Below are positions 9,995 through 34,532 of a stretch of 51,639 nt of DNA, one piece after another. Both the position numbers and the translations under genes were made by a program. Source of the stretch: a virus (lineage: Duplodnaviria; Caudoviricetes); IMG/VR virus record IMGVR_UViG_3300020120_000103, positions 1 to 51,639 of that record. One strand, 5' to 3'. The notes beneath the pieces are model-generated. The model did no database searches. It was not told the DNA's origin and was given only the letters and a program-made list of their open reading frames with translations. Position 1 is the first letter of the stretch, and each line of letters opens with the position of its first letter.

Positions 9995-12064
9995 CTAGGC
10001 ACTTCCCTTCGCGATGAGGCGCTCACGCACCTTCGATGCCGCGACGTCGTTCTTCAACCACTGTGCGACCGAGGGCCTCATCTTCATCGAGGCGAGAGCT
10101 TCCGGCACCAACCACCCGTTCTTCGTACCGACGCGCTTGTGATGGCATCCAACGTGGCGCAGGGCGCTCAGGATCTGCGCCTGCTCGATGCCCGTGGGCA
10201 TGATCTTCCGCTCGCTCTGGGTGACCATGTCGTAGGCCTCGGTGAGGGTCACGAAGGGCACGCCCTCCAGGGCCTCGCGCATGCGCACCATCACGATGTC
10301 GTCTTCGTAGTCCTCGTTGCGGCTCTTGCAGAAGGCCTTCTCCTCCTCGGTCAGGTGATGGTCGAACGTGGCGTCGAGGGCGAGTTGGTTGGCCTCCCAC
10401 CAGAGCGCGTCACGCAGTTCCATCAGCCGCGCCTTGCCACACATCTTCCCCACGCGGATCACCGCGAAGCGTGTGTTGCCTGTGGGGTCGGGCAGCACCA
10501 GGTCGTTGCTCGTACCGAAGAGCACGAAGCTCCTCGCGACCTTCTCCACGCTCCGCCCGTAGGGCTTGCGGTACTCGTCCTCCACCGCGCTGATGAAGGC
10601 CTTGAGGGTGTCACGGTCGCTGCGGCGTGCCGTGGCCATCTCCTCCATCTCGATGAACACCTTGCCCTTGCAGAGCATCTTCGTGTCCTTGTCGTGCGGG
10701 TCTCCATGTATGCTGCCGTACCACGGACCTGCAAGCTGGCGCAGCAAGCTGCTCTTCCCAGTCTCCTGCTCACCGTCCAGGATCACGACGACGCGGTGGT
10801 CGATGGGCGTCGAGACGTCGTGGGGGCCGCTGAGTGCCCGGCTCCGGCGGATGGCCGCCACCATCTGCTTGGCGAAGATGCTGCTCGCGATCGGACCGTC
10901 CGGACTGTTGAGCACCTCTTCGTGCAGACTGCTGAGATGGCACACGCCGGGGTTGGGCAGGGCGTCGAGGTACTCCACGAAGGGGTTGTACGGGTGGTCC
11001 TCGCAGATGGCCTCGATGGCCCCCATCACGGTGTCGACCGTGACCTTGCCTCCCTCGCTCTCGAACCAGCACCGGACCCACGCGATGTCACCGTTCGAGA
11101 CGCTGCCCCGCTCCATGCAAAGCGCCACCGGCGGGTGGATAGCCACCATCTGCCTGCCCATCACGTCGTAGCGGAACACACCCTCCCACGCCGGGTGCGT
11201 CGTCAGGGTCTGCATCACCTCGTTCAGCTCCAGTGCGCGGAGCTTGCCCGGAGGGGCCACGAGCGGTTCGTCTGGCGCCCTGGGCTTCGGCGGGCGATCC
11301 AGGAAGGCCTCCGGCGCGGGGCCGGTGGGACGGTCGCTGCGGTCGCGAGCGTCTTCGCACTTGTGGACTATCTCGCTGTGGCGCCACGTTGGCGTGCACC
11401 GCCAGTTGTACTCCTGCTCGATGAGATCGACGGCCGTGTCCACGTCCAGCTCCAAGGTGCGCACGAGCTTCAGAGCGACATTGAAGAGTGCCCCGCTTCC
11501 GTTCTCGCCCTCAATGGCGGGAGGGGCGTCTCGCAGGAAGTCCTTGGCCTTCATGACGCGCCGGTGGCCCTCATCGGTGGTGGGGTCGATGGGCTGCACC
11601 GCAGTGGTATTCGTGGAGCGCGGGGCAGGACCCAGGGCCTCTAGGTCCGCCAGGAGCTGTGGCGGCATCGGTGCAGGATCGTGGGCGTCGAAGACCTCCC
11701 GGCCCTCGCCCTCGAAGACGACCAGCCCACCCTCGCCGCGCACATCGACGTGGAAGAGGAGCTTACTCACGCTGTTCTTGATGAGCTTGCCCTCGGGCTG
11801 CTGGAAGTAGAAGTGAAAGCCCCTCGGGGTCTTCATCATGAACGTGATCGGGGGCCGGTACTTACGCACGAAGGCTTCGGTGGCCTCGTGGTCGTCGCAG
11901 TCGATGACCACGACCCCGCTACGGGTGCCGGTGGCGATGGCTGTATTCGCTCCGGCAGGGACGAAGGCCTTCTCGCCTGGGCCGAGGAGACTGAATGGTA
12001 TGAGAGGGACCTTGCCCTTACAGGGGAACGTGCACAGCGCGTCGCGCCAGTTGAGATCTGCCAT
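9995..12064 (-). CDS. bifunctional primase-polymerase fused to VirE-like helicase
   Basis: GKVP, VIDCD, TPRGFHFYF, DVRG; GEQETGKS, GTSND, TGNTRF. Confidence 0.9.
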   Translation of the reverse strand: MADLNWRDALCTFPCKGKVPLIPFSLLGPGEKAFVPAGANTAIATGTRSGVVVIDCDDHEATEAFVRKYRPPITFMMKTPRGFHFYFQQPEGKLIKNSVSKLLFHVDVRGEGGLVVFEGEGREVFDAHDPAPMPPQLLADLEALGPAPRSTNTTAVQPIDPTTDEGHRRVMKAKDFLRDAPPAIEGENGSGALFNVALKLVRTLELDVDTAVDLIEQEYNWRCTPTWRHSEIVHKCEDARDRSDRPTGPAPEAFLDRPPKPRAPDEPLVAPPGKLRALELNEVMQTLTTHPAWEGVFRYDVMGRQMVAIHPPVALCMERGSVSNGDIAWVRCWFESEGGKVTVDTVMGAIEAICEDHPYNPFVEYLDALPNPGVCHLSSLHEEVLNSPDGPIASSIFAKQMVAAIRRSRALSGPHDVSTPIDHRVVVILDGEQETGKSSLLRQLAGPWYGSIHGDPHDKDTKMLCKGKVFIEMEEMATARRSDRDTLKAFISAVEDEYRKPYGRSVEKVARSFVLFGTSNDLVLPDPTGNTRFAVIRVGKMCGKARLMELRDALWWEANQLALDATFDHHLTEEEKAFCKSRNEDYEDDIVMVRMREALEGVPFVTLTEAYDMVTQSERKIMPTGIEQAQILSALRHVGCHHKRVGTKNGWLVPEALASMKMRPSVAQWLKNDVAASKVRERLIAKGSA

Positions 12065-12076
12065 GACCTCTAGGGT

Positions 12077-12092
12077 TGCCGGTCCCGTGCCA
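12077..12092 (-). promoter_or_regulatory. sigma54-type -24/-12 promoter for the primase operon
   Basis: TGGCACGGGACCGGCA (GG-N10-GC), 12 nt before ATG 12064. Confidence 0.7.
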
Positions 12093-12115
12093 GAGGTGGT
12101 GGGGTACGTCGGTCA

Positions 12116-12194
12116 TTTCATTAAAAGGGTAAAGGATTTGTGTAGTGACATACGTACACGCGCGCGCGTAGGGTCCCATTACCCTTTAATGAAA
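12116..12194. repeat. AT-rich inverted repeat; candidate origin or regulatory site
   Basis: TTTCATTAAAAGGGTAA (12116-12132) vs TTACCCTTTAATGAAA (12179-12194). Confidence 0.7.
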
Positions 12195-12228
12195 CCGCCC
12201 CCCTGACCTCCCGACCCTACCGCGGCGG

Positions 12229-12244
12229 TGGCACGGAACGCGCA
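12229..12244 (+). promoter_or_regulatory. sigma54-type -24/-12 promoter
   Basis: TGGCACGGAACGCGCA, 12 nt before ATG 12257. Confidence 0.7.
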
Positions 12245-12256
12245 ACTCCGCGAACC

Positions 12257-12481
12257 ATGGATGCCGAAGTCAAAACGTCGCCCCTCGTGGTGGCCCTCTA
12301 CGACTGCGATCACGCTCTGCTCACCAAGCTCGTCGAGGTCAGGAACCTCAGCAGGCCGCCCGGCGCGCGGAAGGTAAGCCGCAGCGCGGTGGTGCGAGCC
12401 CTCATCCGAGAGGCAGCCATGCCCGCGCACGGTGAGCAGGATGGCCAAGGTGAGGCGCCGCAGAAGCGCGAGGCGCCGTGA
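12257..12481 (+). CDS. ribbon-helix-helix-like DNA-binding protein
   Basis: short beta segment then helices, VSRSAVVRALIRE. Confidence 0.6.
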   Translation: MDAEVKTSPLVVALYDCDHALLTKLVEVRNLSRPPGARKVSRSAVVRALIREAAMPAHGEQDGQGEAPQKREAP

Positions 12482-12630
12482 GTAATCCGTGGCCCGTGAT
12501 GACCTGGACGCTGGTCATCATGCTCGTGGCCTCGCTGGCCTGGATGATCTCCGTGCTCCTGTCGCCATCGAGCCTCATGCCTCCTCGTGGCATGACCTGG
12601 GAGTGCTTCCCCGTGCCGGTGCACACGTGA
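12478..12630 (+). CDS. small membrane protein
   Basis: MSNPWPVMTWTLVIMLVASLAWMISVLL..; GTGA overlaps at both ends. Confidence 0.5.
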   Translation: MSNPWPVMTWTLVIMLVASLAWMISVLLSPSSLMPPRGMTWECFPVPVHT

Positions 12631-12764
12631 GGCGTTCTTACCGCGCGCAGAAGGAGTGCTACGCGGTGATCCAGGCGGTGATCTACGTCGAGACGATGGC
12701 CCAGTCGTGGCGCACGTGGTGTCGCCTGGTCGAGCAGGCGTTGGAGGGAGCGGACCTATCCTGA
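12627..12764 (+). CDS. hypothetical protein
   Basis: coupled GTG start, MRRSYRAQKEC.. Confidence 0.45.
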   Translation: MRRSYRAQKECYAVIQAVIYVETMAQSWRTWCRLVEQALEGADLS

Positions 12765-12768
12765 AAGC

Positions 12769-13770
12769 GTGAGTGAGTACCGCACCGACACCGTCCAGAT
12801 CTCCACGCACAAGCGCACGCCGCAGGGTGGCCTCGATGTCCCCGCGGCGCTGACCCGTTCCGGGATCTTCATCTACCACATGCCTGATGGCACGGTGCAG
12901 CGGGAGCTGCGTCCTGCCGACGAGGTCTTCAACGAGGACAGCCTCTCGACCCTCGCTGGCGCGAGTCTCACGGTCGGGCACCCCGGGCTGGTCACGACGA
13001 AGAACTGGAAGGACCACACGGTCGGCCACGTAGGCGACACCGTGAAGCGCTCCGGTGACCTCGTCGACAGCCGCGTGCGCGTGCAGCACGAAGATGCGGT
13101 CAAGCAGGTCGAAGCGAAGCGCCTCGTGGAGCTGTCGTGCGGCTACACCTGCGACGTCGAGCACACGTCCGGTGAGATCAATGGAGAGCACTACGACGCG
13201 ATCCAGCGCAACATCCGCTACAACCACGTGGCCCTCCTCCCTCCCGGCGGTGGTCGAGCAGGCAGCGACGTGAAGCTGCGCATGGACGGAGCTGGGTCGA
13301 GCTTTCCCGAAACCGTGGCCGCCTACAATGAAGCCATGGATCTCGCAGAGGCTCTCAAGGAAATCGACCGTCTCAACGGTCTCCTCACAGGCGAGAAGAC
13401 GCGCGCGGACTCCCTGGACACGAAGCTGAAGGAGATCGACATCGACATTCTCGTCGCCGATCGTCTCGCGCTCGTTCAGGACGCGCAGGTCGTTCTCGGC
13501 ACCGAGGTGAAGCTCGACGGCAAGGACGCGGACACGGTCATGCGGGAGGCGTGCCAGAAGGCGTTCCCCGAGATCAAGCTCGACGAGAAGTCCAGCGCCG
13601 ACTACGTGCGCGGCCTCTTCGAGGCGGGCGTGCGGCAGGCCAAGCAGGGCCAGGCTCACGTGCGCAAGGGCAACGTGCACGCGGACGCGGCCTCGGTCGA
13701 GGACAAGGTCGCTGCGGCTCGCGCGCGCAACGAGAAGCGAAGTTCGGATCTCTGGAAGGGTGGTAAGTGA
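12769..13770 (+). CDS. DUF2213 capsid maturation protease/scaffold
   Basis: TRSGIFIY, ELRPADEVF, TVGHP, ELSCGY, NHVAL, GRAG; coiled-coil C-terminus. Confidence 0.9.
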   Translation: MSEYRTDTVQISTHKRTPQGGLDVPAALTRSGIFIYHMPDGTVQRELRPADEVFNEDSLSTLAGASLTVGHPGLVTTKNWKDHTVGHVGDTVKRSGDLVDSRVRVQHEDAVKQVEAKRLVELSCGYTCDVEHTSGEINGEHYDAIQRNIRYNHVALLPPGGGRAGSDVKLRMDGAGSSFPETVAAYNEAMDLAEALKEIDRLNGLLTGEKTRADSLDTKLKEIDIDILVADRLALVQDAQVVLGTEVKLDGKDADTVMREACQKAFPEIKLDEKSSADYVRGLFEAGVRQAKQGQAHVRKGNVHADAASVEDKVAAARARNEKRSSDLWKGGK

Positions 13771-14390
13771 TGGGCCTGCCCAACGGCGGACAGACTGCGT
13801 ACAACCTGGAGCCCGACATCGCGGTTCCGGGTCAGCTCGCGGAGCAGAACCTCGACGACAAGGTCGAGAGCTTCCCGGCGGGCGAGGCGATCGAGTTCGG
13901 ACGGCTCCTGGAGGTCGATCAGACCACGGGTGCGGTCTGGAAGACCGCAGGCACGGGGGCGGCTCTCGTCAGCTCGGGGCGCAAGCTCGCGGGCGTGAGC
14001 GTCAACGACGTCGCGCGTGAGCAGCAGCTCGCGGCCACGGGCGGCAGCTCGGGCAAGGGTCACTACCAGGTCGGTGAGATGGTGCCGGTCCTGCGCAAGG
14101 GCCACATCTATGCCTGCTGGGACGGTGGCACGGGCAGCTTCGGGCAGGGCGTATACGTCGTCCCGAACGTCAACCACTCCAGCACGACCGACGCGAACAA
14201 CCTGAAGGGCACGTTCACCGGGAACGCGACGTCCAGCTCGGCCGGCAGCGAAGTGGCTGCGGCGCCCGCGGGCATCCTCCTGGTGCGTGACGTGAGCACG
14301 AAGACCCCGGCACGCGGGGCAGCGTCGACCGGCTCGGACGGCCCGACGTTCGTGTGTGACCTCGAAGTGAACATCCAGGGAGCCCCGTGA
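13770..14390 (+). CDS. head decoration (cement) protein
   Basis: lies between protease and MCP; PGQ, IEFG, VLRKGHIY. Confidence 0.75.
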   Translation: MGLPNGGQTAYNLEPDIAVPGQLAEQNLDDKVESFPAGEAIEFGRLLEVDQTTGAVWKTAGTGAALVSSGRKLAGVSVNDVAREQQLAATGGSSGKGHYQVGEMVPVLRKGHIYACWDGGTGSFGQGVYVVPNVNHSSTTDANNLKGTFTGNATSSSAGSEVAAAPAGILLVRDVSTKTPARGAASTGSDGPTFVCDLEVNIQGAP

Positions 14391-15469
14391 TGTATTTCGG
14401 CCTCGACAACCCCATGGCGGGGTTCATGAAGTTCGACAGCAAGGACCTTCCCGGTGCGATCGGGCGGATCCTGGAGACGATCCAGGGCCGCCAAGACGCC
14501 CAGGAGACCGCGATCTTCGCCCGTCAGCTGGAGTACATCTACACGCAGACGTACGACATCCTCTACCCCGACCTGAAGGCCCGGACGCTGATCCCGGTCG
14601 ACACGCGGGTGCCCACGGGCGCGGACAGCTTCACGTACACGCAGTTCGACAAGCTCGGCGAGGCGAAGATCGTCCACAACTACTCGCAGGACTTCCCGGA
14701 TGCGAGCATCGTCGGCAAGCAGTTCAAGCAGGGCATCGTCTCGCTCGGCGACAGCTACCAGTACACGATCCAGGACATGCGCGCTGCGGCGATGGCCGGC
14801 CTGCCCCTGGAGGCTCGCAAGGCTGCCACGGCCCGCTGGGTCATGGAGAAGAAGCTGGAGCTGCTCGCGGCGCAGGGCGACAGCGCGACGAACCTCTATG
14901 GTCTCGCGAACGCCCCCAACATCCAGCAGACGACCAAGGTCTCGCAGAACAACGCCGGCAGCACGTCCGCGACGTGGGCGAGCCTCATCAGCGATGCGCT
15001 CGGCAAGGGCAACATCACGGCAGTGGCCCAGGAGATCGCGAAGGACGTCCTGCAGATGGGCAAGGACATCTTCACGAACACGAAGGGCGTCCACTACGGT
15101 GACACGCTCGTCCTCAGCACCCCGATGTACGGCGTGCTGGCGAGCACCCCGATGGCCCCGCAGTTCGGGCAGAGCGTCACGCTCCTCGACTACCTCCTGG
15201 AGCTGGACCCCTGGCTCAAGACGGTCGAGTTCTGGCCCTACCTGGACACGGTCGCGAACCTCGCGCCGACCCCGGGCACGAGCGGTCACGGCCTCGCCAT
15301 GCGCTACCAGAAGGACCCCACGGTCCTGGCGCTGATCATCAGCCAGGAGTTCGAGCAGTTCGCTCCTCAGCCGCGCAACATGAGCTTCATCGTCCCCTGC
15401 CACATGCGCACGGGCGCCGTCGAGGTTCGCTACCCGAAGGCCGTCACCTGCATGACCGGCCTGGACTGA
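14390..15469 (+). CDS. major capsid protein (DUF2184-like)
   Basis: FARQLEYI, GEAKI, LYGLAN, GAVEVRYP. Confidence 0.9.
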   Translation: MYFGLDNPMAGFMKFDSKDLPGAIGRILETIQGRQDAQETAIFARQLEYIYTQTYDILYPDLKARTLIPVDTRVPTGADSFTYTQFDKLGEAKIVHNYSQDFPDASIVGKQFKQGIVSLGDSYQYTIQDMRAAAMAGLPLEARKAATARWVMEKKLELLAAQGDSATNLYGLANAPNIQQTTKVSQNNAGSTSATWASLISDALGKGNITAVAQEIAKDVLQMGKDIFTNTKGVHYGDTLVLSTPMYGVLASTPMAPQFGQSVTLLDYLLELDPWLKTVEFWPYLDTVANLAPTPGTSGHGLAMRYQKDPTVLALIISQEFEQFAPQPRNMSFIVPCHMRTGAVEVRYPKAVTCMTGLD

Positions 15470-15472
15470 CCG

Positions 15473-15766
15473 ATGGGCATCGTCGAGCGCAAGAAGTCTG
15501 AGAAGGCCCGTCGATGGGATGCGGTCGTCGCCATGGACAACGTGGTCCGCGGCGACGACAAGGCCGGTGACGAGCATCGCCGCATGGCCGCGCACGCCCA
15601 CGTCATGACGCACCATGCCCTGGAGCTGGACACGCCCGAGGCACACGAAGCAGCCGCGCAGGCGCACGACAAGGTCGCAGAGATGCACCGCGACGTGGTC
15701 GAGGAGTACCCCGACGACGAAGAGGCTCCCGAGTCCAGCGAGCGAGCACCCGCGAAGCGCAAGTGA
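15473..15766 (+). CDS. His/Ala-rich hypothetical protein
   Basis: directly after MCP; AHEAAAQAH pattern. Confidence 0.65.
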   Translation: MGIVERKKSEKARRWDAVVAMDNVVRGDDKAGDEHRRMAAHAHVMTHHALELDTPEAHEAAAQAHDKVAEMHRDVVEEYPDDEEAPESSERAPAKRK

Positions 15767-15791
15767 ATCAAGCGCGGGCCTACCTTAAGGC

Positions 15792-18700
15792 ATGGCCCTC
15801 GGATCTGCACGCAAGACGCTGATGTTCACTGGGCCGCAAGGCCCGCAGGGTGTGCAAGGAGCACGCGGTGACGTTGGTCCAGCTGGATCAGCAGGTCCCG
15901 CAGGTCCGCCTGGTCCCGAAGGTCCGGGAGGGCAAAGCTCCACGGCCGTAAGCAACGGTCTGAACAGCAACATCGCCACGGGCGGTGTGGGGTCGCTGCG
16001 GCTCACCGGGCCTAGCGCTGCGTTCAGCATCGGTGGCTTCACCGCGCCTGCTGCAGCGGGTACGAAGCTTACGGTGATCAACACCACGGCGCAGCCCATG
16101 ACCGTGGTGCACGAGGACACATCTAGCACGGCTGCGAACCGCATCGACACGCAGTCCGGCGCCCCGATCACGCTCCCGCCGCGTCGCGGGCGCCTGCAGT
16201 TCACCTACGACGGGACCGCGTCCCGATGGGTGCTCAGCGAGGCAGGGCAGAACTACAACCGCTGGATCGACGTGCGCGACTTCGGTGCGTACGCGGATGG
16301 CGTGCACGACGACACGGCCGCGTGCCAGGCCGCGCTCACGTACGCGCGTTCGCTCTCGCCGCGGTTCGCATCTGTCCTCCCGCTCTCGGGCAAGTTCCCG
16401 AGCAGCAACGGTTTCAACGCACCGACGGTCCACTTCGGTGACGGCCTCTACAAGCTTACGGCCCCGGACGGCCAGGCATGCCTGGAGGTGTCCGAGGGCG
16501 TGCACGTCATCGGCGATGGCCAGGGCACGATGCTCATGCCCACCACGCCTGGCGCGCACATCTTCCGGCACGCGAACCTGTACCAGCGCTTCGAGGGCCT
16601 GAACTTCCTGAGCGGCAACTGCCACATCGTGTGCGGCGGCCCCTCGCGCTACTACGGCGGGCAGCTCGGGAGCATGCTCTACAACGGCACGATCCAGGTG
16701 CACAACTGCTGGTCGCAGGGCGCCTCGGGAGCGTTCTACTGGACTGACGTGGCTGCGGCCGGGCGCGATCCGTCGAGCCAGCTCATCGTCTCGAACTGCT
16801 TCCTGATGAACGCGGTGCAGTACATCGGCAACCACGACGACGCCACGTTCACGCACACGTGGGTCTGGTGGATCAACATCCCGATCGGGGTCGGCAACGA
16901 CTTCTGTCCGCCGGTCAACGACGACAGCGGCCATGCCATGAGCTGCTTCAACACGTGGAACGTGCTGACGCTCGACCACTGCGTGGGCGTGCCCATCGTC
17001 GACGACACGCGCTCGCCCAAGAGTACCTGGATCCAGGGCTCGGGCATCGTGCGCTGCTTCCACACGCGCTTCGGTGGCGAGTCTCAGGCTCCGCTCGCGC
17101 GGCAGAAGCTCCACGTGACCTACAGCGGCCTGGACTGGTCGGTCATGGCCGCGGGCATCCGCGGCGACTGGCTCTTCGACAGCTGCGCCATCGCATCGTG
17201 CACGGGTCACAACTGGTTCGAGGTCTACGACAGCTTCCCGACCAGCATCGACTTCCGCCCCGCGACCACGGCCAGTCTCACGGGCTTCTCGCCGCCGCAG
17301 GCACCCGCGCTGCTCATGCAGAGCAAGGGCATCTGGATCGACGCGACCTCGTGCCCGCAGAGCACCTACGAGAAGGTCGCGCGCGAGAGCATCACGCTGA
17401 ACCTGGAATCGTTCTCGGCCGGGCCGGACTTCCGCTTCCGCACGAGCACGGACCCGTCGCTGGCGCTCGGCGCCTCGGGCGTGACCGACGTCACCGCGAT
17501 CATGCGCAAGTACATGACCGGGACGATGGGCGACCGCGGCAAGGACACGGCCCTGGGCGTCTCGGTCAATCACTGGCCCGCGGGTAAGTTCCAGCTCTCG
17601 CTCGCGGACACGGTCTCGGGGTCGATCGCGTCGGGAGGCACGGACACCGCGACGGGTTACTCGGTGCAGGGCTTCCACGCGACGACCGGCCCGGTGAACC
17701 TGCTCACGGGATTCAACAACGCCCTGTCAGGCTCCCTGCCCGCGGGCGAGTACACGCTCAGCTTCATGGTCAAGGCTGCCTACTCAGGGCAGGTTGAGGT
17801 GCTGCTGACGGACGCCACGGGTGGCACGAACGCCATCCCACTGGACTCGATGGACTTCTCCAAGGGCGGGTGGCAGCGCCTGCAGACGACCTTCTACTGG
17901 GATGGCACGACGTACAGCGGTGGCTCGGGTGCAGGCATCACGCTGAACTTCACCGCCATGCCCACGAGCAGCGACCTGTACGTGGCCTTCTTCGCGGTGC
18001 ACGCCGGGCGCAAGGCCGCCCCGTGGAACTACCCGGGCAACAGCAACACGGACACCTTCGTGCCCGATCGCTACTACAGCAGCGGCGCCCCGACCTCAGG
18101 CACGTTCAAGGTCGGAGACGTGATCTGGAACACCTCGACCCTCGCGGGCCAGCCCATCGGATGGGTATGCGTGCGCGCAGGGTCATTCGGTGGCTCGCTG
18201 GGCACGGCCCCGCTGTTCGCAGGCTTCGGCACGATCAACTTCGACCCCTCGCTCATCAGCTCGTACAACTTCGACTACGACGCGAACGTGCTCACGCCTG
18301 GCGCCATCACGACGTGGCCCAGCAAGTACGGTGGGACGGACACCGCTGCGCGCTTCGCGCTCTCGGGCACCGCGACGGCGCATGCTGCAGGAGGTTCCGG
18401 GCCGAACGGCGTGGCCTACGCCTCGGGCAACGGCTCCAGCGACACGATGCACGAGGCCAACCAGTCCTCGCAGCACGTGGCGAAGGAGCTGTACATCATC
18501 GCGAAGTTCAATACGACCGGGGGCGGGTCCGGGACACTGTTCGATGGCGGGTCGGGCAACGACGGGCGCATCTACCGACCCGGAGTCAACCAGGTGGAAC
18601 TGCTGCTGCAGGCCCCCGCGGGTCCGGGCACTACGGTCTCCGGTGCGACCGAGCAGTGGGGGGTCTGGCACGTCATCGCGGATGGCACGAACCAGAGCTT

Positions 18701-19796
18701 CTTCCTGAATGGGGTGCAGGTCATCGCTCCCACGGCCATCGCCACGCAGTTCGACAACGGTGTGACGCTGTTCAGCTTCGGCGCAGGAGGCGACTTCGCC
18801 AACGCATCGGTGGCCAGGTGCATCGGGTTCAGCAGCGCGCTCAGCGCGACCGACCGCTCGAACATGAGCGCGTATATCAATCTGATCTACGGCCTGAGTG
18901 ACGTCGTGGCCACCTCGACGACCACGAACTACCGTGGCGAGTTCGGTGATGGATCGGACGGCACGGTCACCTTCGACGGGTCGACTTCGGTCGTGGGCTT
19001 CACCGGCCCGACGTCGAACGTGTACACGCAGACGCGCGAGGTCTACTTCGAGAACGCCACCGTCAACAACGGTGTCACGATCGTGCAGCCCATCGCGATG
19101 GGCGCCATTCACGTGCGCGGGACCCTCACGTGGAACGGCACGATCCAGGCTAACGGGGCCAACGCTTCGGGCGCTCTACCAGGCGCCACCCCTGGTTTCC
19201 CTGGAGGGGCAGGAGGTGGCGGTTCGAGTGGTGCAGGCAACGGCACCGCAGGAGCAGCCAATGCGTCTGCCTTCGCCACGGGCGGGGCAGGCGGAGCAGG
19301 AGGCAACACCGGCATCGGCAGCAGCGGGGGCGGAGCGGGCACCGATGGTGGAGCAGTGCTGGGGGGCCAGCATGACCCCGCCACCTGGATCAGGGGCTTC
19401 GTCATCAACAGCTTCCCCAACCTGCGCGTGCTCTTCGGAGGCCTCGGTGGTGGCGGTGGCGGTGTCGCGGTGCTCTCCGGCGGGACCTGGACCGGAGGCG
19501 GAGGTGGCCAGGGTGGCGGGCTGTCGATCGTGGCCGCGCGCATCCTCACGGGCAACGGAGCACAGACTGCAAACGGAGGCAACGGCGCCAACGGCACGGA
19601 CGTGGGTGGAGGATCAGGGTCCGCGGGCGGCGGCGGCGGTGGTGGTGGCGGGTCGTGCGTCATCGTCTACGCCGACAAGAGCGGGTGGACTGGCACGCAG
19701 ACATCGGCAGCAGGCACGGCGGGCACCGGGGTCGGCGGCGCTGCTGCAGCAGGCAACGGATCTACGGGCAAGACCTTCCTCATCGGACCGGCATAA
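15792..19796 (+). CDS. large modular fibre/spike (collagen, pectate-lyase-like beta-helix, carbohydrate-binding/LamG-like, Gly-rich C-terminus)
   Basis: GPQGPQG repeats, DVRDFGAYADGVHDDTAA, APTSGTFKVGDVIWN, FGDGSDG, poly-Gly. Confidence 0.85.
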   Translation: MALGSARKTLMFTGPQGPQGVQGARGDVGPAGSAGPAGPPGPEGPGGQSSTAVSNGLNSNIATGGVGSLRLTGPSAAFSIGGFTAPAAAGTKLTVINTTAQPMTVVHEDTSSTAANRIDTQSGAPITLPPRRGRLQFTYDGTASRWVLSEAGQNYNRWIDVRDFGAYADGVHDDTAACQAALTYARSLSPRFASVLPLSGKFPSSNGFNAPTVHFGDGLYKLTAPDGQACLEVSEGVHVIGDGQGTMLMPTTPGAHIFRHANLYQRFEGLNFLSGNCHIVCGGPSRYYGGQLGSMLYNGTIQVHNCWSQGASGAFYWTDVAAAGRDPSSQLIVSNCFLMNAVQYIGNHDDATFTHTWVWWINIPIGVGNDFCPPVNDDSGHAMSCFNTWNVLTLDHCVGVPIVDDTRSPKSTWIQGSGIVRCFHTRFGGESQAPLARQKLHVTYSGLDWSVMAAGIRGDWLFDSCAIASCTGHNWFEVYDSFPTSIDFRPATTASLTGFSPPQAPALLMQSKGIWIDATSCPQSTYEKVARESITLNLESFSAGPDFRFRTSTDPSLALGASGVTDVTAIMRKYMTGTMGDRGKDTALGVSVNHWPAGKFQLSLADTVSGSIASGGTDTATGYSVQGFHATTGPVNLLTGFNNALSGSLPAGEYTLSFMVKAAYSGQVEVLLTDATGGTNAIPLDSMDFSKGGWQRLQTTFYWDGTTYSGGSGAGITLNFTAMPTSSDLYVAFFAVHAGRKAAPWNYPGNSNTDTFVPDRYYSSGAPTSGTFKVGDVIWNTSTLAGQPIGWVCVRAGSFGGSLGTAPLFAGFGTINFDPSLISSYNFDYDANVLTPGAITTWPSKYGGTDTAARFALSGTATAHAAGGSGPNGVAYASGNGSSDTMHEANQSSQHVAKELYIIAKFNTTGGGSGTLFDGGSGNDGRIYRPGVNQVELLLQAPAGPGTTVSGATEQWGVWHVIADGTNQSFFLNGVQVIAPTAIATQFDNGVTLFSFGAGGDFANASVARCIGFSSALSATDRSNMSAYINLIYGLSDVVATSTTTNYRGEFGDGSDGTVTFDGSTSVVGFTGPTSNVYTQTREVYFENATVNNGVTIVQPIAMGAIHVRGTLTWNGTIQANGANASGALPGATPGFPGGAGGGGSSGAGNGTAGAANASAFATGGAGGAGGNTGIGSSGGGAGTDGGAVLGGQHDPATWIRGFVINSFPNLRVLFGGLGGGGGGVAVLSGGTWTGGGGGQGGGLSIVAARILTGNGAQTANGGNGANGTDVGGGSGSAGGGGGGGGGSCVIVYADKSGWTGTQTSAAGTAGTGVGGAAAAGNGSTGKTFLIGPA

Positions 19797-24738: not shown

Positions 24739-25515
24739 ATGCGCCGCATCACCGCCCTGTTTGCGCTCCTGGTCCTCGCCGCGTGCAGTGTGTGCTGCCG
24801 GCCATCTGCCGTGCCCACCGCCAACGCTGCCGAACGCGCGGAGGCCATGTCGGTGGCCCTCGCGTCGATTGATGAGGATGGTGAGGCGCGCGCGGACTGC
24901 GGAGGCGTGTGGATCGACCAGTACACGATCCTGACCGCGTTCCATTGCGTGGCCGACCTCGGGCGCCCGCCCGTGACCGACCTACTGGAGCAGCTCCTCC
25001 AGGGCCTCGGCGACAGCGTCCCGCCCGAGCTGCGGACCTGGACAGCGGTGTGGGATCCCACGGGACAGCCCGAGCCCTACTTCCTGAAGGGCGACAAGGT
25101 CACGAAGCGCGCGGTGGTCGCGTACTTCGATCGCAAGCTCGACCTCGCCCTGCTGGAGGACGTGAACCCGCCACCGCATGCGGTGGCCCATCTAGGCCGC
25201 ACGTGCCTGCGAGATGGCGAGGAGGTGGACGTCGTGGGCAGTCCCTCAGGCTTCGCGTTCAGCTACTCGCACGGGTACATCTCGTCGACCATCGACGGCG
25301 CCCCGGGCAAGCAGTTCAAGACCCTGGAGATCGCAGCGCCCATCTGGTTCGGCAACAGCGGGGGCGGGGCCTTCGATGCCAACGGAGACCTGGCGGGCAT
25401 CGCGGACTACATGGCCTCGTCGGGCCACGGGGTGGCGCCCATGGGCTTCTTCATCCACCGCGACGTCGTACGGGACTTCCTCCATGCCTACCACGAAGCT
25501 AACCACCTTCCCTGA
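24739..25515 (+). CDS. trypsin-like serine protease, predicted lipoprotein
   Basis: lipobox VLAAC; catalytic motifs LTAFHC, DLALL, GNSGGG. Confidence 0.85.
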   Translation: MRRITALFALLVLAACSVCCRPSAVPTANAAERAEAMSVALASIDEDGEARADCGGVWIDQYTILTAFHCVADLGRPPVTDLLEQLLQGLGDSVPPELRTWTAVWDPTGQPEPYFLKGDKVTKRAVVAYFDRKLDLALLEDVNPPPHAVAHLGRTCLRDGEEVDVVGSPSGFAFSYSHGYISSTIDGAPGKQFKTLEIAAPIWFGNSGGGAFDANGDLAGIADYMASSGHGVAPMGFFIHRDVVRDFLHAYHEANHLP

Positions 25516-26059
25516 GCTGCTCCGTGCAGCGATCGACAGCCACGCCGCGGACACGTACCACATCCTGCCCGGCATCGTGGTGGCGTACAACGCGTCGCAG
25601 AACACGGCCGACGTCCAGATCGCGATCGACGATCCACGCTTCGACCCGGACACCGACGAGCGGCAGGACGAGCCCTGGCCGGTCTACCCGAGCGTGCGTG
25701 TGGTGTGGCCGCGCTTCGGTGGGACGACCCTTGTCGGGACGCTGGGGCAGGGCGACAAGGTGCAGTGCTTCTTCCAGGATCTAGACGACAGCAAGTTCCG
25801 CAGCACGGGCCAGCAGGGCTCGCCGCAGAACAGCAGGCGCTTCGGGTCGGACGCGGTATTCGCCGTACCGTGGGACGTGACGGATGGCGGGGTAGCCGGG
25901 ACGCAGTTCGACACGCTGGCCCTGGCGAGCAAGGTCGAGAAGTTCTGCCAGGACATCATCACCTGGGTCAAGACGGGCACGGCGGGCGGCAACCCATTCA
26001 CCTTCCCAGGACCGGACCCCTCGGACACCACGGGCAGCACCATAGGCGTAGCGCACTAA
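25484..26059 (+). CDS. baseplate spike (Gp138-like N-terminus)
   Basis: LPGIVVAYN..TADVQ, VVWPR.GG, GDKV.CFF, SDAV. Confidence 0.75.
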   Translation: MPTTKLTTFPELLRAAIDSHAADTYHILPGIVVAYNASQNTADVQIAIDDPRFDPDTDERQDEPWPVYPSVRVVWPRFGGTTLVGTLGQGDKVQCFFQDLDDSKFRSTGQQGSPQNSRRFGSDAVFAVPWDVTDGGVAGTQFDTLALASKVEKFCQDIITWVKTGTAGGNPFTFPGPDPSDTTGSTIGVAH

Positions 26060-26079
26060 CACCTGGCCTACGCTTAAGC

Positions 26080-26469
26080 ATGTCGTGCTTCGCCCAGGAC
26101 GGGACCGGGGACCTGCTGCTGACGCGCGCGAACGCGGGTAAGACCCTCACGCTCGTCCGGGATCCCAATGCCTGCGCCGCGCAGAAGCTTACGAACCGCT
26201 TCCTGCTCATCCAGGGTGAGTGGTTCCTGGACACGCGCGTTGGTCTGCCGTTCTTCCAGTTCCTCACGGTCAAGAACCCGGACGTGCGCGCGCTCCAGCA
26301 GCTCTTCTCGAAGGTGGTGCTGAGCGTCCCGCCGATCGTGTCGATCGACTTCCTGACGGTCAACATCGACCCACAGCGCCACTGCGGCGTCGCCCTCAGC
26401 GCGAAGACCAACACCGGGGCCACCATCACGGGTGGCCAGGGCAACTCGTTCATCGTGACGCTGCCGTGA
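26080..26469 (+). CDS. baseplate wedge protein (gp46/W-like)
   Basis: GDL, QKL..R.LL.QGEWFLDTRVGLP. Confidence 0.75.
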   Translation: MSCFAQDGTGDLLLTRANAGKTLTLVRDPNACAAQKLTNRFLLIQGEWFLDTRVGLPFFQFLTVKNPDVRALQQLFSKVVLSVPPIVSIDFLTVNIDPQRHCGVALSAKTNTGATITGGQGNSFIVTLP

Positions 26470-26476
26470 GGACCAC

Positions 26477-27778
26477 ATGCTGACCGGAGTTACCCCCACA
26501 GGCTTCGTAGCCAAGACCGTCCAAGACCTGATCAAGGATACGGAGACCGACGAGCTGGCGCAGATCGATCCGCAGCTCGACACCAGTCCCGAAGAGCCGA
26601 TCGGCCAGCTCAACGCCATCTTCATGGCGAAGGTGGCGGAGCTGTGGGAACTGGGAGGGGTCGCCTACAACGGCATGAGCCGCGATGGCGCCGAGGGGCC
26701 CCAGCTCGACAACGTGAACGGCCTCACCGGCACGAAGCGCAAGAGCGCCTTCCCGAGCCACACCCTGCAGACGAACGTCTTCAGCCAGGTTGGCACCTAC
26801 CCGGCCGGGAGCCTCGTCGCGAACGTGAACGGGCAGGGCAACGTGCTCTTCGCCAATGGAGACACGCTCACCATCGTCCTGGTCGGCGGTCTGTACACCG
26901 CGACGGCCGCGAACGTAGTGCTGGCCACCAGCGCGTCGCTGCCCCTCACGGTCCCGGGCATGAAGTTCTTCTGCCTGCAGAACGGACCCACGATCGCGAA
27001 CGCCTCCACGCTCAACGTGATCAACGGCCCGGTCACGGGCTGGGTCAGCACCAACAACCCTCTCGACGCGGAGCTGGGCGGACTCATCGAGCAGGACACG
27101 CCCTACCGTCTGCGCGGCGATGCGGAGATCAGCGCGGCCGGAAGTGGTAACCCCGACGCGATCCAGGCGGACCTGCAGAACGTGCCCGGCGTGATCCAGG
27201 CCTTCGTCATCGAGAACACCTCGAACGTCTACGACGCGAACGGCAACCCGCCGCACAGCTACACGGCCGTGATCTGGGACGGTCTCATCCCGGCGGCCAA
27301 CGATAGCGAGATCGCGCAGACGCTCTGGGACGACAAGCCCACGGGCATCTTCCCCAACGGGAGCATCGTCGATGGCATCGCGGTGGACAGCAACAACCAG
27401 CAGCACATCATGCCCTTCCAGCGGGCGACGCAGCTCACGCTCTACCTTGACTACACGATCACGATGCTGCAGGGCCAGCCCTTCAACGCCACGGTGGCCC
27501 TCGCCATCAAGCAGGCGGTCGTGCAGACCTCGCAGCAGCCGCAGATCCAGATCGCGGCCGGCACCGCAGCGCCCAACCCTGCATACCTCGGGCTGCAGCA
27601 GAGCGTGATCGCGGAGGCCTTCAAGAGCGCGGTCCTGCAGGCAGGCCTCGGCGTGAAGGACGTCACGCTCCTGCACCTGGGCTTCAGCGCCAGCCCTGGA
27701 GGTACGACGAACCTCTCGGTCGGCAACCTCGCCATCGCCATCGCTGACACCTCGCGCATCACCGTGAACGGCATCTGA
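26477..27778 (+). CDS. baseplate J-like protein
   Basis: GVTPTGF, AEGPQLD, EQDTPYRLR, VPGV.QA.VIEN, PPHS. Confidence 0.88.
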   Translation: MLTGVTPTGFVAKTVQDLIKDTETDELAQIDPQLDTSPEEPIGQLNAIFMAKVAELWELGGVAYNGMSRDGAEGPQLDNVNGLTGTKRKSAFPSHTLQTNVFSQVGTYPAGSLVANVNGQGNVLFANGDTLTIVLVGGLYTATAANVVLATSASLPLTVPGMKFFCLQNGPTIANASTLNVINGPVTGWVSTNNPLDAELGGLIEQDTPYRLRGDAEISAAGSGNPDAIQADLQNVPGVIQAFVIENTSNVYDANGNPPHSYTAVIWDGLIPAANDSEIAQTLWDDKPTGIFPNGSIVDGIAVDSNNQQHIMPFQRATQLTLYLDYTITMLQGQPFNATVALAIKQAVVQTSQQPQIQIAAGTAAPNPAYLGLQQSVIAEAFKSAVLQAGLGVKDVTLLHLGFSASPGGTTNLSVGNLAIAIADTSRITVNGI

Positions 27779-28464
27779 TGGCCTACCCCACTCTCGACAC
27801 GAACCACGTGGCTGAGGCCACTGCGCTGCTGACGGACCACTACCGCACGAAGGTCGTGATCCCGAAGCTGCTGCAGTGCTACATGAACCGGCTGCAGGAG
27901 CTGGAGGGGGTCTTCTGGGACATCATCAACAAGATGCTCCTGGCCAACAGCCCGGTGGGTGACCAGCTCAACAAGCTCGGCAACATCGTCGGGGCCGTGC
28001 GCGAGCCGGGCATGTCCGATGCAGACTACCTGCAGGCGGTCAAGATCCAGATCCGGGTGAACCGGAGCCAGGGCCTGTCCGAAGACGTGATCCAGGTGGC
28101 CACGCTGGCGCTGAACGGTGCGAGCATCCCGCTCTACGTGGACGTGAGCGCGTCTGGTCCGATCACGATCTCGTGGGTCGACCCGGCCAGCTTCATCTTC
28201 GTGAGACCTCCCAAGTACACGATCAACCAGGGCGCGGCCTTCAGCCTGGACTGCTCGAACCTGCAGGCCCCGAACAACATCGCGCGCCTGCTGGGGGACA
28301 CGCGGAGCGTCGGCACCTACGGTGAGCTGCACTACACCACGTGGGCCGACGGCAACGACTTCGAGTTCGGCAGCGTGTACTCGTCCGCGGCCGGGCAGGG
28401 CACGTTCGGAAGCGTGTATACTACGTCGGTAGGCGGCCTGCTGGCCGCAGGAGCGGTGTGCTGA
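27778..28464 (+). CDS. baseplate wedge protein (DUF2612-like)
   Basis: GDQLNKLGNIVG..R..SDADY. Confidence 0.75.
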   Translation: MAYPTLDTNHVAEATALLTDHYRTKVVIPKLLQCYMNRLQELEGVFWDIINKMLLANSPVGDQLNKLGNIVGAVREPGMSDADYLQAVKIQIRVNRSQGLSEDVIQVATLALNGASIPLYVDVSASGPITISWVDPASFIFVRPPKYTINQGAAFSLDCSNLQAPNNIARLLGDTRSVGTYGELHYTTWADGNDFEFGSVYSSAAGQGTFGSVYTTSVGGLLAAGAVC

Positions 28465-29756
28465 TGGGTCAGCCGGTCGTCAAGTTCGCGTGGTCGCTGT
28501 CGGGCAACTACCCGGTCGGTGTCAATCCCTGGAACAGCCAGCCCCTCGCGGTGCCCCCGGCCGGCACGTACTTCACACCGAACGTGAAGCCGAGCGCGGA
28601 GAACTTCAACTGGATGTTCGGCACCATCGCGGCGGACCTGAACAGCCTCCTAACCTGGGCGGCAGTGGCCCCGGGCATCAACTGGCGGCCGGAGTTCTCG
28701 ACCAGCGGTTTCACGACGCCCCTCGTCGAGAACTGCAACTGGGACGAGAAGGATGGCGTGTGGATCGAGGCCACGATCACCGTGGCGGGCACCCCGCTCT
28801 TCGAGGTGTGGGTCACCAAGGGCCTCGACGACGGCGCCGCTGCAGCGTGGACGCAGATCGGCGGGAACAAGCTCACCACGAACGGCTACCTCTTCACGGC
28901 CGTCGCGGGTGACGGGGCCACCGCCGGGCGCTACTGGCTCGCGGGCACGGACAACGTCGGGGCCACGAACAACGACCTCGTGATCTGGTTCTGGAACGGG
29001 TCGACGTGGGCCGTGACCGGCACGGGTACCTTCGCCGCGGGCGCGAGCAACACCTGGTACGGGGTGGAGCTGTGCCCCTTCGGCGGGTACATGGTGCTCG
29101 CGGTGGCGGGGCACGGTCTGGCCAGCATGCTGATCAGCAGCAACGACCACGGCGCCACGTGGACCGGCGGACCTGGGACGCTGCCGACGATGGCCGCGGG
29201 CAGCACGTGGCTCCTGAAGAGCAACGGCACGCAGGTGCTCGCCATCCCGAGCAGCGTGAGCCTCTACACGGTCTACCAGTCGACCGACGGCCACACTTTC
29301 ACGAGCAGCGCGGGCCTCGGCAGCATCCTCGCCGCGGGCAACACCGTCGTGGGGCTCGCCTGGACGGCGGACGCTGCAGGACCGTGCTGGGTGGCAGCGG
29401 TGAACAACGGCGCGGGCAGTACCTTCTGGGTCCGCAGCGCGGACGGGGTGACCTGGACGACGCAGCTCGGCGGGATCAGCGCCAACCTCGTGGCCACCGA
29501 CATGGCAGGCTGCGGGTCGCTGCTCGTGTGCACGCTCGCGGATCAGTCCTCGGCCGGGCCGAGCGGGCAGATCTGGAGCCCCGACGGCGGGGTCACCTGG
29601 TACAACAGCCAGGCCACCTTCACGTCGAACGACACGACGGCCACTGCCGGGTACTCACGCAGCCGGGTGCGCGAGAGCAACCAGGGCTTCCTGGCCTTCA
29701 ACAGCCTCTGGCTGCGCTTCAGCGAGCTGGGTGGGAACCCGGTCGCCAAGCTGTAA
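28464..29756 (+). CDS. tail fibre/receptor-binding protein with Asp-box (BNR) repeats
   Basis: PSAENFNW N-terminus; SNDHGATW, STDGHTF, SADGVTW, SPDGGVTW. Confidence 0.75.
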   Translation: MGQPVVKFAWSLSGNYPVGVNPWNSQPLAVPPAGTYFTPNVKPSAENFNWMFGTIAADLNSLLTWAAVAPGINWRPEFSTSGFTTPLVENCNWDEKDGVWIEATITVAGTPLFEVWVTKGLDDGAAAAWTQIGGNKLTTNGYLFTAVAGDGATAGRYWLAGTDNVGATNNDLVIWFWNGSTWAVTGTGTFAAGASNTWYGVELCPFGGYMVLAVAGHGLASMLISSNDHGATWTGGPGTLPTMAAGSTWLLKSNGTQVLAIPSSVSLYTVYQSTDGHTFTSSAGLGSILAAGNTVVGLAWTADAAGPCWVAAVNNGAGSTFWVRSADGVTWTTQLGGISANLVATDMAGCGSLLVCTLADQSSAGPSGQIWSPDGGVTWYNSQATFTSNDTTATAGYSRSRVRESNQGFLAFNSLWLRFSELGGNPVAKL

Positions 29757-33095: not shown

Positions 33096-33607
33096 CGGGT
33101 CCTCGCGGCGAGGAGGTCGATGCCCTGGAGGATGAGGTCGCAGATGGAGACGTCCGCGCGCTTGGCCATTGCCTTGATCTCGTCGTAGCGCCCGTGCGGG
33201 ATGCGTGCCGCGAACACGCGCGTGGGGAGGTCCGCGACGGCGCGGCGAGGGGCCCGGCGGTGGGTTCCGGAGTCCTTGCGCGTGTAGGTCGTGGCCTCGG
33301 CTGCGTTGAGCTTCTCGACCGACGTGATCGGGGCGGCCATCGCGGGGTCGAGCACCGGGGGCAGCGGCTCGTCGTGGTCCTCCGTCATGGCGCGGGCCGC
33401 GTCGCTCTCCTCGCGCGTGGGCAGGCCGACGTGCTCGACGCCCCGAGCCTCGTCCAGCATCTCCTGCGTGATCATGGTGCCGTCCGTGCTGCGGCCGGGC
33501 ACGATCAGGGGGTTGCGCAGCTCGGCCATAAGCTTCTTCTTGGCGCGGTACACCTTCTGGGCCTCGTTCTTCTTCGCGCGCTGCTCGGGGGTCATGGTCT
33601 TGGACAT
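33092..33607 (-). CDS. hypothetical protein with possible C-terminal RHH-like segment
   Basis: TAAGGAG RBS; RVFAARIP..YDEIKAMAKRADVSICDLI. Confidence 0.65.
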   Translation of the reverse strand: MSKTMTPEQRAKKNEAQKVYRAKKKLMAELRNPLIVPGRSTDGTMITQEMLDEARGVEHVGLPTREESDAARAMTEDHDEPLPPVLDPAMAAPITSVEKLNAAEATTYTRKDSGTHRRAPRRAVADLPTRVFAARIPHGRYDEIKAMAKRADVSICDLILQGIDLLAARTR

Positions 33608-33667
33608 GGTGGGCTCCTTACGACCGCAGGCCGCTCGCGGCGGCCCGGGGTCAGCGGTGGGTGCGGG

Positions 33668-33997
33668 TCAGCTTCGCTTGATCGCGGCGCCCAGGTCCAG
33701 CGCGACCTGGATCGGCATGTTCGTCATCACCACCTCGTAGTCGAGGCAGCCGCGCTCCAGGGCCGTGCAGCGGCCGAGCTGCGGGCGCTCGAACACGTAG
33801 ATCGTCATGGCCTCGTCACCGTAGTTCTCGACCAGCCGGAGGCGGTCGCCATCTTCGTGCCACACCTCGCGGCTGCCGTAGGTGTTCTCGAGCTCGGTGG
33901 CGCTGTACTTCTTGGCGCCCTTCTTGAAGCTCTCGATCAGCTGGCTGCGCGCCGTCCAGGTCGTCCGCGTGTCCTTGGTCGTCTTTCGCGTGGTCAT
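33668..33997 (-). CDS. hypothetical protein, first gene of leftward early unit
   Basis: ATG lies 12 nt after a sigma54 motif. Confidence 0.7.
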   Translation of the reverse strand: MTTRKTTKDTRTTWTARSQLIESFKKGAKKYSATELENTYGSREVWHEDGDRLRLVENYGDEAMTIYVFERPQLGRCTALERGCLDYEVVMTNMPIQVALDLGAAIKRS

Positions 33998-34009
33998 GCC
34001 CGACCATGA

Positions 34010-34025
34010 TGCGAGCGCCGTGCCA
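34010..34025 (-). promoter_or_regulatory. sigma54-type -24/-12 promoter
   Basis: TGGCACGGCGCTCGCA, 12 nt before ATG 33997. Confidence 0.7.
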
Positions 34026-34234
34026 GGCTTACAGCTCCCGTAAGTAGGCGTAAGTGCCCGTGCCTGCCCGCGGCGAAGCCTGCATAAAGGTCATCACCCC
34101 GCAAAGCGAGGAACGCCGTGATGTCGCGGGGTTGCACGATAAGCCCGCAGTAAGGTCAATGGGGCATCGTGCCATGGCGAAATACCACGGCATAAAGGCC
34201 TGTTGATCCCTGCTAGGGGCTGCTTGACGCACTG

Positions 34235-34250
34235 TGGCATGAGACCTGCT
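34235..34250 (+). promoter_or_regulatory. sigma54-type -24/-12 promoter
   Basis: TGGCATGAGACCTGCT; downstream gene at 34299 has a GGAG RBS. Confidence 0.65.
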
Positions 34251-34298
34251 CCACCGTCGCCTATACGCACCCAAGGGTGCTCAACCACGGAGAATTCC

Positions 34299-34532
34299 AT
34301 GATCGCACGAGACCGCCTCGCCCACGCCATGGCCGCTGCCTTCACCGACGCGGAGCTGGAGGCCATGCGCATCGCGGTGGACCACGTCCAGGCAGAGCGC
34401 TCCCTGGACCGCCGCAGGGCCGCCGAGCGTAAGAGCCTAGCGACCAACCCGCCGATCGCCCGGGAAGAGCCGCAGGAGACACCGGCCGCGCCCGCGCGCC
34501 ACCGCTCCAGCACGCGCGTCAAGTCGGTGTAG
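34299..34532 (+). CDS. hypothetical protein
   Basis: GGAG RBS, MIARDRLAHAM.. Confidence 0.65.
   Translation: MIARDRLAHAMAAAFTDAELEAMRIAVDHVQAERSLDRRRAAERKSLATNPPIAREEPQETPAAPARHRSSTRVKSV

Follow-up and report, generated by a model that had tools for sequence, protein, structure and literature searches.

Putative sigma-54 promoters, mostly placed for leaderless messages, head the four transcription blocks of an uncultured soil phage

Can a phage that carries no activator gene of its own place its transcription under promoters that a host protein has to open? This question is raised by the two divergent intergenic regions of IMGVR_UViG_3300020120_000103, a viral genome of 51,639 bases (66% GC, CheckV completeness 100%) that was analysed over its entire length, hereafter called the window. 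Bacterial sigma-54 promoters follow the consensus TGGCACG-N4-TTGCW, as in glnAp2, nifH, and pspA; the GC at -12 fixes the start point, and an arrangement with upstream activator sites is textbook knowledge. Sigma-54 polymerase opens the DNA only with the help of an AAA+ enhancer-binding ATPase, and the promoter is silent until then. We identified four motifs of this -24/-12 type (P1 to P4) as two back-to-back pairs, one in each divergent region. With a probability of about two in three, we read them as promoters for the sigma-54 polymerase of the host that head all four transcription blocks of the phage, P1 to P3 being placed for leaderless messages, the activator being likely a host protein, and the host being probably a member of the Myxococcota.

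Promoter motifs at the block heads

All four motifs (Table 1) were confirmed in the sequence at the positions and on the strands originally predicted, as was the gap of 12 nt to the ATG at the first three sites, where each ATG (12064, 12257, and 33997) is the first possible start codon of its open reading frame (ORF). The doublets GG-N10-GC are present in four of four sites, with TGGCACG as the -24 half at three and TGGCATG at one, and the -12 halves (CGGCA, GCGCA, TCGCA, and CTGCT) have the consensus TT missing or partial. The strict motif TGGCACGG-N5-GCA was found three times in the window versus 0.09 times expected (none of 100 shuffles reached three), each match being separated by 12 nt from the ATG that opens a transcription block. 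The loose motif TGGC-N9-GCW matched 41 times, and the matches with an ATG at +12 (3/41) were P1, P2, and P3. In a scan of both strands of the window with a weight matrix derived from six sites in related phages, the top-ranking position was site 1, with site 4 in fourth and site 3 in fifth place. What distinguishes the four sites is not the motif by itself but its combination with position and a fixed distance to the first ATG of the block.

The blocks were defined by a crude gene call based on G+C content at third codon positions (GC3), in which the few short antisense ORFs that passed the filter were taken as artefacts, and nearly all called genes fall into four of them. The genome is tightly packed, with no sizeable non-coding stretch outside the two divergent regions, inside which a consensus scan detected no sigma-70-like promoter. 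The N-terminus of the primase/helicase that opens the P1 block aligns with its homologues from residue 1 at ATG 12064. The original prediction had assigned the sites to early and replication transcription, which proved too narrow; the four motifs head all blocks, virion genes included, with capsid, tail, and baseplate genes in the P2 block and with the P1 block continuing through terminase, sheath, and portal genes.

The first genes of P1, P2, and P3 have no Shine-Dalgarno (SD) core 4–12 nt upstream. Site 1 has a GAGG merely 2 nt from the ATG, and sites 2 and 3 are without an SD core, which fits the near-leaderless output that had been proposed for them. An SD core at working distance precedes 15 of the 51 called genes and also the P4 gene, where a GGAG (34289–34292) lies 6 nt ahead of ATG 34299 and the predicted leader is about 36–38 nt long. 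Profile searches of the window upheld the earlier statement that no AAA+ activator is recognisable in the phage: six-frame searches detected neither a Sigma54_DBD domain nor, at E ≤ 1, a Sigma54_activat domain (PF00158), and the small ORFs of the 30–38 kb region matched no activator-like family in Pfam, PHROGs, or NCBIfam. Five related records had no activator above the cut-off either, the sole match being an 11.9-bit P-loop in contig G004.

Both divergent regions carry an AT-rich box, CAT(T)AAA(A)GG, with four copies genome-wide, all inside these two regions and about 55–85 and 120–150 nt from the predicted starts; we treat the boxes as a lead, not as a test. The 10-mers common to both regions (≤1 mismatch) are the -24 box and a few short GC-rich words. 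The inverted repeat in region 1 is a candidate for an activator or bending-protein site.

Table 1. Positions of the promoter motifs, transcription blocks, and other features in the window
Feature	Position	Strand	Remarks
P1, -24/-12 motif TGGCACGGGACCGGCA	12077..12092	-	12 nt before ATG 12064 of primase/VapE-helicase; 16.0 bits
P2, -24/-12 motif TGGCACGGAACGCGCA	12229..12244	+	12 nt before ATG 12257 of 74-aa ORF
P3, -24/-12 motif TGGCACGGCGCTCGCA	34010..34025	-	12 nt before ATG 33997 of 109-aa ORF; 13.8 bits
P4, weaker motif TGGCATGAGACCTGCT	34235..34250	+	48 nt before ATG 34299; 14.1 bits
Divergent region 1	12065..12256		192 nt, 60% GC; inverted repeat TTTCATTAAAAGG (12116-12128) / CCCTTTAATGAAA (12182-12194)
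Divergent region 2	33998..34298		301 nt, 61% GC; 18-nt direct repeats 34076-34093 and 34141-34158; GCATAAAGG at 34082-34090 and 34190-34198
P1 block	12064 to 1, across junction 51620 to 37959	-	~25.7 kb; replication, then phosphoesterase, sigma factor, terminase, neck, sheath, portal
P2 block	12257-29756	+	74-aa ORF, capsid, fibre, tail, baseplate
P3 block	33997-29655	-	small ORFs, small-terminase-like, resolvase-like, HNH proteins
P4 block	34299-38050	+	small ORFs, DNA methylase, phosphoribosyltransferase-like protein
First gene, P1 block	9995..12064	-	Prim-Pol + VapE-like primase/helicase, 689 aa
First gene, P2 block	12257..12481	+	74-aa ORF; possibly ribbon-helix-helix, Pfam match below cut-off
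First gene, P3 block	33668..33997	-	109-aa ORF, without family match
First gene, P4 block	34299..34532	+	77-aa ORF, without family match
Sigma-70-family factor of the phage	49310..50029	-	regions 2 and 4, not sigma-54; inside P1 block
Equal-scoring motif CTGGCACGCCTCCCGCA	13541..13556	-	antisense in DUF2213 gene, no start codon after; 15.6 bits
Equal-scoring motif TGGTACGAGATCAGCA	49759..49774	-	within sigma-factor gene, same strand, upstream of terminase gene; 14.8 bits
G.CCTANNCT box, examples	12756-12762, 19801-19807, 22565-22571, 24727-24733, 26068-26074	+	
G.CCTANNCT box, starts	9998, 40384, 42417, 43867, 44354, 45369, 45924, 47866, 49313	-	

Recurrence in related phages, other viruses, and Myxococcota

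No cultured phage is close to this genome (portal protein relatives among cultured phages are all <32% identical), and the DNA of both divergent regions had no match among cultured phages. Related viral contigs were found via the major capsid protein (MCP). The closest related contig (G001, identical to L161; 45 kb, 56% GC) shares 60% identity in the MCP and 53% in the helicase and matches 33 of the 66 window proteins; closer MCP relatives (65–76% identity, P0019–P0029) were seen as proteins, as were P0002–P0004 (42–47%) among the primase relatives. G001 contains four motif matches versus none for a reversed control pattern. Two of them form a back-to-back pair (TGGCACGAGTATTGCT and TGGCACGCGGTTTGCA), one with a gap of 12 nt to the ATG of the primase gene and the other with the same gap to the ATG of a 74-aa ORF, which heads the capsid module at the same place as the 74-aa ORF of the P2 block. 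The third site (TGGCACGTGTCTTGCT) follows immediately on a terminator hairpin downstream of the capsid gene and has its ATG after 13 nt, and the fourth has a long leader with an SD-like stretch. The full consensus TGGCACG-N4-TTGCW is present in three of the four G001 sites, with spacers unlike those of the window. As judged by position, G001 thus repeats the pattern of the window, with three sites of the predicted leaderless kind and one leadered site. The two 74-aa ORFs show no significant similarity (BLASTP E 0.24). In contig G005 (MCP identity 40%), a single site precedes a 78-aa ORF by 13 nt, upstream of the capsid module; this ORF was considered as a counterpart of the P2 ORF and looks unrelated.

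Fifty records of MCP relatives (30 further loci left out) were searched for the motif with an ATG within 4–28 nt. Eight matches were recovered in six records, with gaps of 12, 12, 12, 13, 13, 13, 11, and 5 nt, and the reversed control gave five matches. A query with the single primase protein had no match in viral contigs; a search of viral and metagenome contigs with a primase alignment yielded mostly distant VapE-domain relatives, and the two full-length ones (L001, L028) were without the motif. Nothing comparable was found in the divergent regions of the helicase relatives L641, L642, and L643. The conservation in related phages that had been expected held for G001 (12, 12, and 13 nt plus the leadered site) and G005, but not for four other helicase relatives in the stretches examined.

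Among viral contigs in general, the canonical motif with an ATG at 8–20 nt occurred at at least 141 sites among the matches listed, with peaks at 12 nt (n = 24) and 13 nt (n = 19) versus about eight per other offset. When TGGCACGG-N5-GCA was combined with a 12-nt gap, the ATG was an apparent ORF start (≥60 codons, ≤20 open codons upstream) at 19 of 122 sites among the matches listed, versus 1 of 119 sites among the matches listed for a control gap of 8 nt. These contigs range from 44 to 71% GC and the layout is therefore not confined to one host group. One unrelated 29.9-kb viral contig of lower GC content (44–46%) encodes three tandem paralogues (L432, L433, L434; N-termini MNANNNIK..., MDANNNIK..., and MNAHNDRK...), each of which follows TGGCACGG-N5-GCA and a near-identical 12-nt gap to the ATG. 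A separate arrangement, palindromes of two face-to-face motifs (TGGCACG-N4-TTGC-N3-GCAA-N4-CATGCCA), recurs in mostly low-GC viral contigs (L282 with three sites, L351, L358, L370, L343, L334, and L267–L270).

MCP relatives were located on contigs of metagenome-assembled genomes (MAGs) labelled Gemmatimonadetes, Myxococcota (three), Bdellovibrionales, and Opitutales. A sigma-54 DNA-binding domain is encoded in four of five MAGs carrying MCP relatives, the fifth being a partial genome of 1.8 Mb. Of 401 Myxococcota genomes sampled, 9 contained an MCP relative, versus 1 of 401 sampled from the Gemmatimonadota, and some of these relatives lie in megabase-length contigs. The relaxed -12 form was used for chromosomal scans; the canonical TTGCW form with an ATG at 6–26 nt had no matches in the five MAGs. 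In the Myxococcota MAG G052, 13 of 32 motifs are followed by an ATG, every gap being 12–15 nt. Across 41 Myxococcota genomes the gap was 12 nt in 29 of 150 cases among the matches listed (172 more exist; binomial p 4e-6 against a flat null of 1 in 13 over gaps), versus 7 of 87 among the matches listed from 41 Gemmatimonadota genomes (p 0.5, same null). The listed Myxococcota matches include the -12 halves CGGCA and GCGCA, as in the window. Eight Myxococcota chromosomal sites were cut out, and the ATG opens an ORF of 132–702 aa in six and of only 14 and 48 codons in the other two; among the genes behind chromosomal sites are a pirin-like gene and a divergent pair made up of a P-type ATPase and a small lipoprotein. 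This pair is at the Myxococcota locus G087:C5 (~94.4–97.7 kb, L385), where one site of a divergent motif-12-nt-ATG pair faces the P-type ATPase-like gene, open over 644 aa of the stretch, and the other faces the lipoprotein-like gene of 132 aa; the back-to-back geometry is that of the phage. Myxococcota sites thus have the same motif and the same 12-nt spacing as the phage, but serve cellular genes, whereas the phage layout serves whole blocks of up to ~26 kb. We conclude that the 12-nt layout is, to judge from these genomes, a habit of at least some Myxococcota, and the phage host is probably a member of this phylum, which we infer rather than assign.

The motif TGGCACG-N6-GCW is 3–10 times rarer than its reversed pattern in the genomes G052 (32 versus 312), G281, G051, G054, and G055, a depletion that fits selection against stray sigma-54 binding sites. 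Per base, the motif is 10–20 times denser in the window (4 in 51.6 kb) and in G001 (4 in 45 kb) than in these five genomes.

Genome features and a second start-adjacent box

A 19-nt direct repeat is present at both genome ends (1–19 and 51621–51639) and a 185-aa minus-strand ORF spans the end junction; the genome is therefore closed, either circular or circularly permuted, even though its record is classified as linear. Pfam and PHROGs assignments indicate a tailed phage and include a contractile-tail set (portal, Mu-F-like, sheath-like DUF3383, tail terminator, tape measure, Dit-like, baseplate, DUF2213, cement, and major capsid proteins). The replication set consists of the Prim-Pol/VapE primase-helicase, a PD-(D/E)XK nuclease, an SNF2-like helicase, methyltransferases, and a family-A DNA polymerase. 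Part of the stretch is contained in 24 soil-metagenome DNA sequencing runs, and no RNA run is among the sequencing runs listed as containing it. Four of these soil-metagenome runs provided short contigs only over 11600–12800, with zero differences in these contigs.

A second start-adjacent box, G.CCTANNCT followed after 5–7 nt (often GAAGC) by ATG or GTG, is found ahead of 14 genes, most of them for the virion. The genome has only 22 copies of CTANNCT versus 53 expected from shuffles, and 14 of these 22 are start-adjacent. No conserved -35-like block was found upstream of these boxes, and CTANNCT is not start-adjacent as a rule in the relatives (4 of 44 copies in G001, 3 of 34 in G005). The box may serve as a promoter with only a -10 element, read by the phage sigma factor and likewise yielding leaderless mRNAs; alternatively, it may act as an unusual signal for translation. 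The short gap between the phosphoesterase and sigma-factor genes contains, at 50123–50143 on the minus strand, two loose GG-N10-GC matches that overlap each other (TGGCCTGGCAAGTGCA and TGGCAAGTGCAACGCT); they have matrix scores below 8 bits and may be a weak internal promoter of the sigma gene.

Interpretation and comparison with known systems

The view that the motifs behave like real sigma-54-type promoters is supported by their block-heading positions, the recurrence at the same block heads in G001, the spacing of 12–13 nt, the different spacer letters, and the full consensus. In the mechanism that we propose, host sigma-54 polymerase would bind P1 to P4 and a host AAA+ enhancer-binding ATPase would open the complex. 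The activator is most likely a host protein because an ATPase is required and none is encoded by the phage, and it may bind the CAT(T)AAA(A)GG boxes, which are located about 55–150 nt upstream of the starts in the DNA that separates the promoters of each pair. With the GC of the -12 element 13 nt ahead of the A of the ATG at P1 to P3, transcription would start 0–2 nt before the ATG; the P1 to P3 mRNAs would then be leaderless, without need for an SD sequence, and P4 would give an ordinary leader of about 37 nt with its GGAG. The phage sigma-70-family factor, encoded inside the P1 block, may take over later transcription. A more far-reaching proposal, that the whole lytic programme runs on leaderless sigma-54 promoters and is gated by one host enhancer-binding ATPase and the signal it senses, is tentative and in our estimate somewhat short of an even chance; within it, the alternative to the host ATPase is a new non-AAA+ phage protein opening sigma-54 complexes. 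If the proposal is true, leaderless sigma-54 transcripts would be an undescribed class, common in Myxococcota and their phages.

Several observations weigh against P1 to P4 being host-read sigma-54 promoters. The -12 halves CGGCA, GCGCA, and TCGCA are without the consensus TT, and the start points and the sigma-54 dependence are themselves deduced from sequence. A consensus search with ≤2 mismatches gave 8 matches versus 4.5 expected (9 of 100 shuffles reach 8), six of the 8 lying in coding DNA. Site 2, as a result of its GCGCA at -12, is absent from the 18 positions above 8 bits in the matrix scan, and two motifs in coding regions reach scores equal to those of the claimed sites (Table 1), that at 13541..13556 being either a chance match or an intragenic binding site. 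The original prediction expected such a scan to rank the four sites alone on top; sites 1, 4, and 3 do rank high, but two coding motifs equal them and site 2 stays below 8 bits. No motif+ATG match was found in 44 of the 50 MCP-relative records, and among helicase relatives at 46–53% identity the motif lies within 7 kb of the helicase gene in one of six (G001); with this absence in most relatives, the layout is a trait of a sub-lineage and not of the whole family. Part of the 12–13 nt peak in viral contigs consists of palindromes, the ATG belonging to the mirrored TGGCAT. The AT-rich box was defined after inspecting the divergent regions, so that its count is not an independent test. Finally, the host is a deduced one and its rpoN is likewise putative.

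The motif might instead be the site of a phage-encoded factor and merely resemble a sigma-54 promoter. Two kinds of candidate are available: the sigma-70-family factor of the phage itself, and a protein of the repressor/operator kind, for which the 74-aa ORF of P2 is an example; the genome has several small DNA-binding-like ORFs. In addition, the three strict sites all have TGGCACGG, which goes beyond what the generic consensus needs, and the -12 halves are off-consensus. We nevertheless regard this as unlikely: the 12-nt gap is too short for a -35/-10 promoter with a 16–18 nt spacer before the same ATG; G001 keeps full-consensus half-sites with differing spacers, its sigma factor being 31% identical over 121 aa; and the layout occurs in Myxococcota genes and in unrelated viral contigs (44–71% GC), which cannot all share one phage factor. 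Sigma-54 polymerase could also bind without firing, as a closed-complex roadblock or silencer or by titration of sigma-54, with transcription coming from other promoters. The phage and its five relatives have no activator gene, the depletion of the motif in sigma-54-bearing genomes (in G052, 32 versus 312) fits a cost of misplaced sites, and in Escherichia coli the sigma-54 holoenzyme sits inactive on promoters and binds many intragenic sites, according to excerpts of PMC4591121. A roadblock, however, does not need the fixed distance of 12–13 nt that a start point needs, searches of both divergent regions detected nothing else that resembles a promoter, and some of the chromosomal genes behind this layout are ordinary ones whose expression the cell requires, which leaves silent binding decidedly unlikely.

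An action of the conserved letters in RNA, as an element of the 5' untranslated region that replaces the ribosome-binding site or binds a regulator in transcripts that start further upstream, is highly improbable in our view. The motif does sit at the place of an SD sequence, and many internal genes have a start-adjacent CCTANNCT instead of an SD sequence. The letters, however, are exact sigma-54 DNA half-sites one helical turn apart with no conserved pairing between them, the divergent regions contain no upstream promoter candidate, and at both P4 and the fourth G001 site a long distance, with an SD sequence in it, separates the motif from the start codon. Chance similarity in GC-rich DNA would account for the commonness of the loose motif (41 matches) and for a two-mismatch search near expectation, but not for a strict motif found three times versus 0.09 expected, nor for an ATG at +12 in only 3 of 41 loose matches, each of them block-heading, nor for the recurrence in G001; given the strict-motif count, the block-head positions, and this recurrence, it was rejected, and its remaining probability is negligible.

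Compared with bacterial sigma-54 promoters, the motifs of the phage agree in their GG and GC doublets, which are separated by one helical turn, in the -24 half, which is a perfect TGGCACG at three sites, in their intergenic and gene-facing position, and in having AT-rich boxes 55–150 nt upstream, where sites for activators or bending proteins usually lie. They differ from them in the 12 nt to the ATG without a leader or SD sequence, in the -12 half without TT, and in the lack of an activator gene in the genome. Among phages, the virulent Pseudomonas phage YuA resembles this one in having a promoter of the host sigma-54 type in its genome; a passage on YuA, citing Ceyssens et al. 2008, describes one mapped sigma-54-like promoter beside one sigma-70-like and nine phage-specific promoters (Putzeys et al. 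2024, PMC10914365). In YuA the sigma-54-like promoter is thus one among others, whereas here the motif heads every block, and the word 'leaderless' is absent from the main text of the YuA paper. Leaderless mRNAs are described in excerpts on the Deinococcus-Thermus group, where they arise from sigma-70-type -10 elements that abut ORFs (PMC12340547), and have been proposed for pexR of myxobacteria, which according to a partial text can probably use leaderless messages (PMC12754779). As far as these excerpts go, such genes are like the predicted P1 to P3 messages in having the start codon at or ≤5 nt from the 5' end and no ribosome-binding site, but their promoters are of the sigma-70/sigma-A type, which need no ATPase, whereas those of the phage are of the -24/-12 type.

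A full-text literature search, with most subscription journals outside its coverage, returned no account of start-codon-abutting sigma-54 promoters in phages or myxobacteria. What appears to be new is that sigma-54-type promoters placed for predicted leaderless messages head every block of a phage genome without an activator; the motifs are real and conserved, and their function is what we infer. The reading predicts 5' ends at the ATG, dependence on rpoN, and dependence on an activator, and the layout may serve as a host clue for uncultured soil phages. If true, transcription of the phage would be under an all-or-none switch operated through a signalling protein of its host, a logic unlike the usual sigma-70 early promoters followed by phage factors, and one that joins a promoter class with leaderless translation, two mechanisms normally treated apart.

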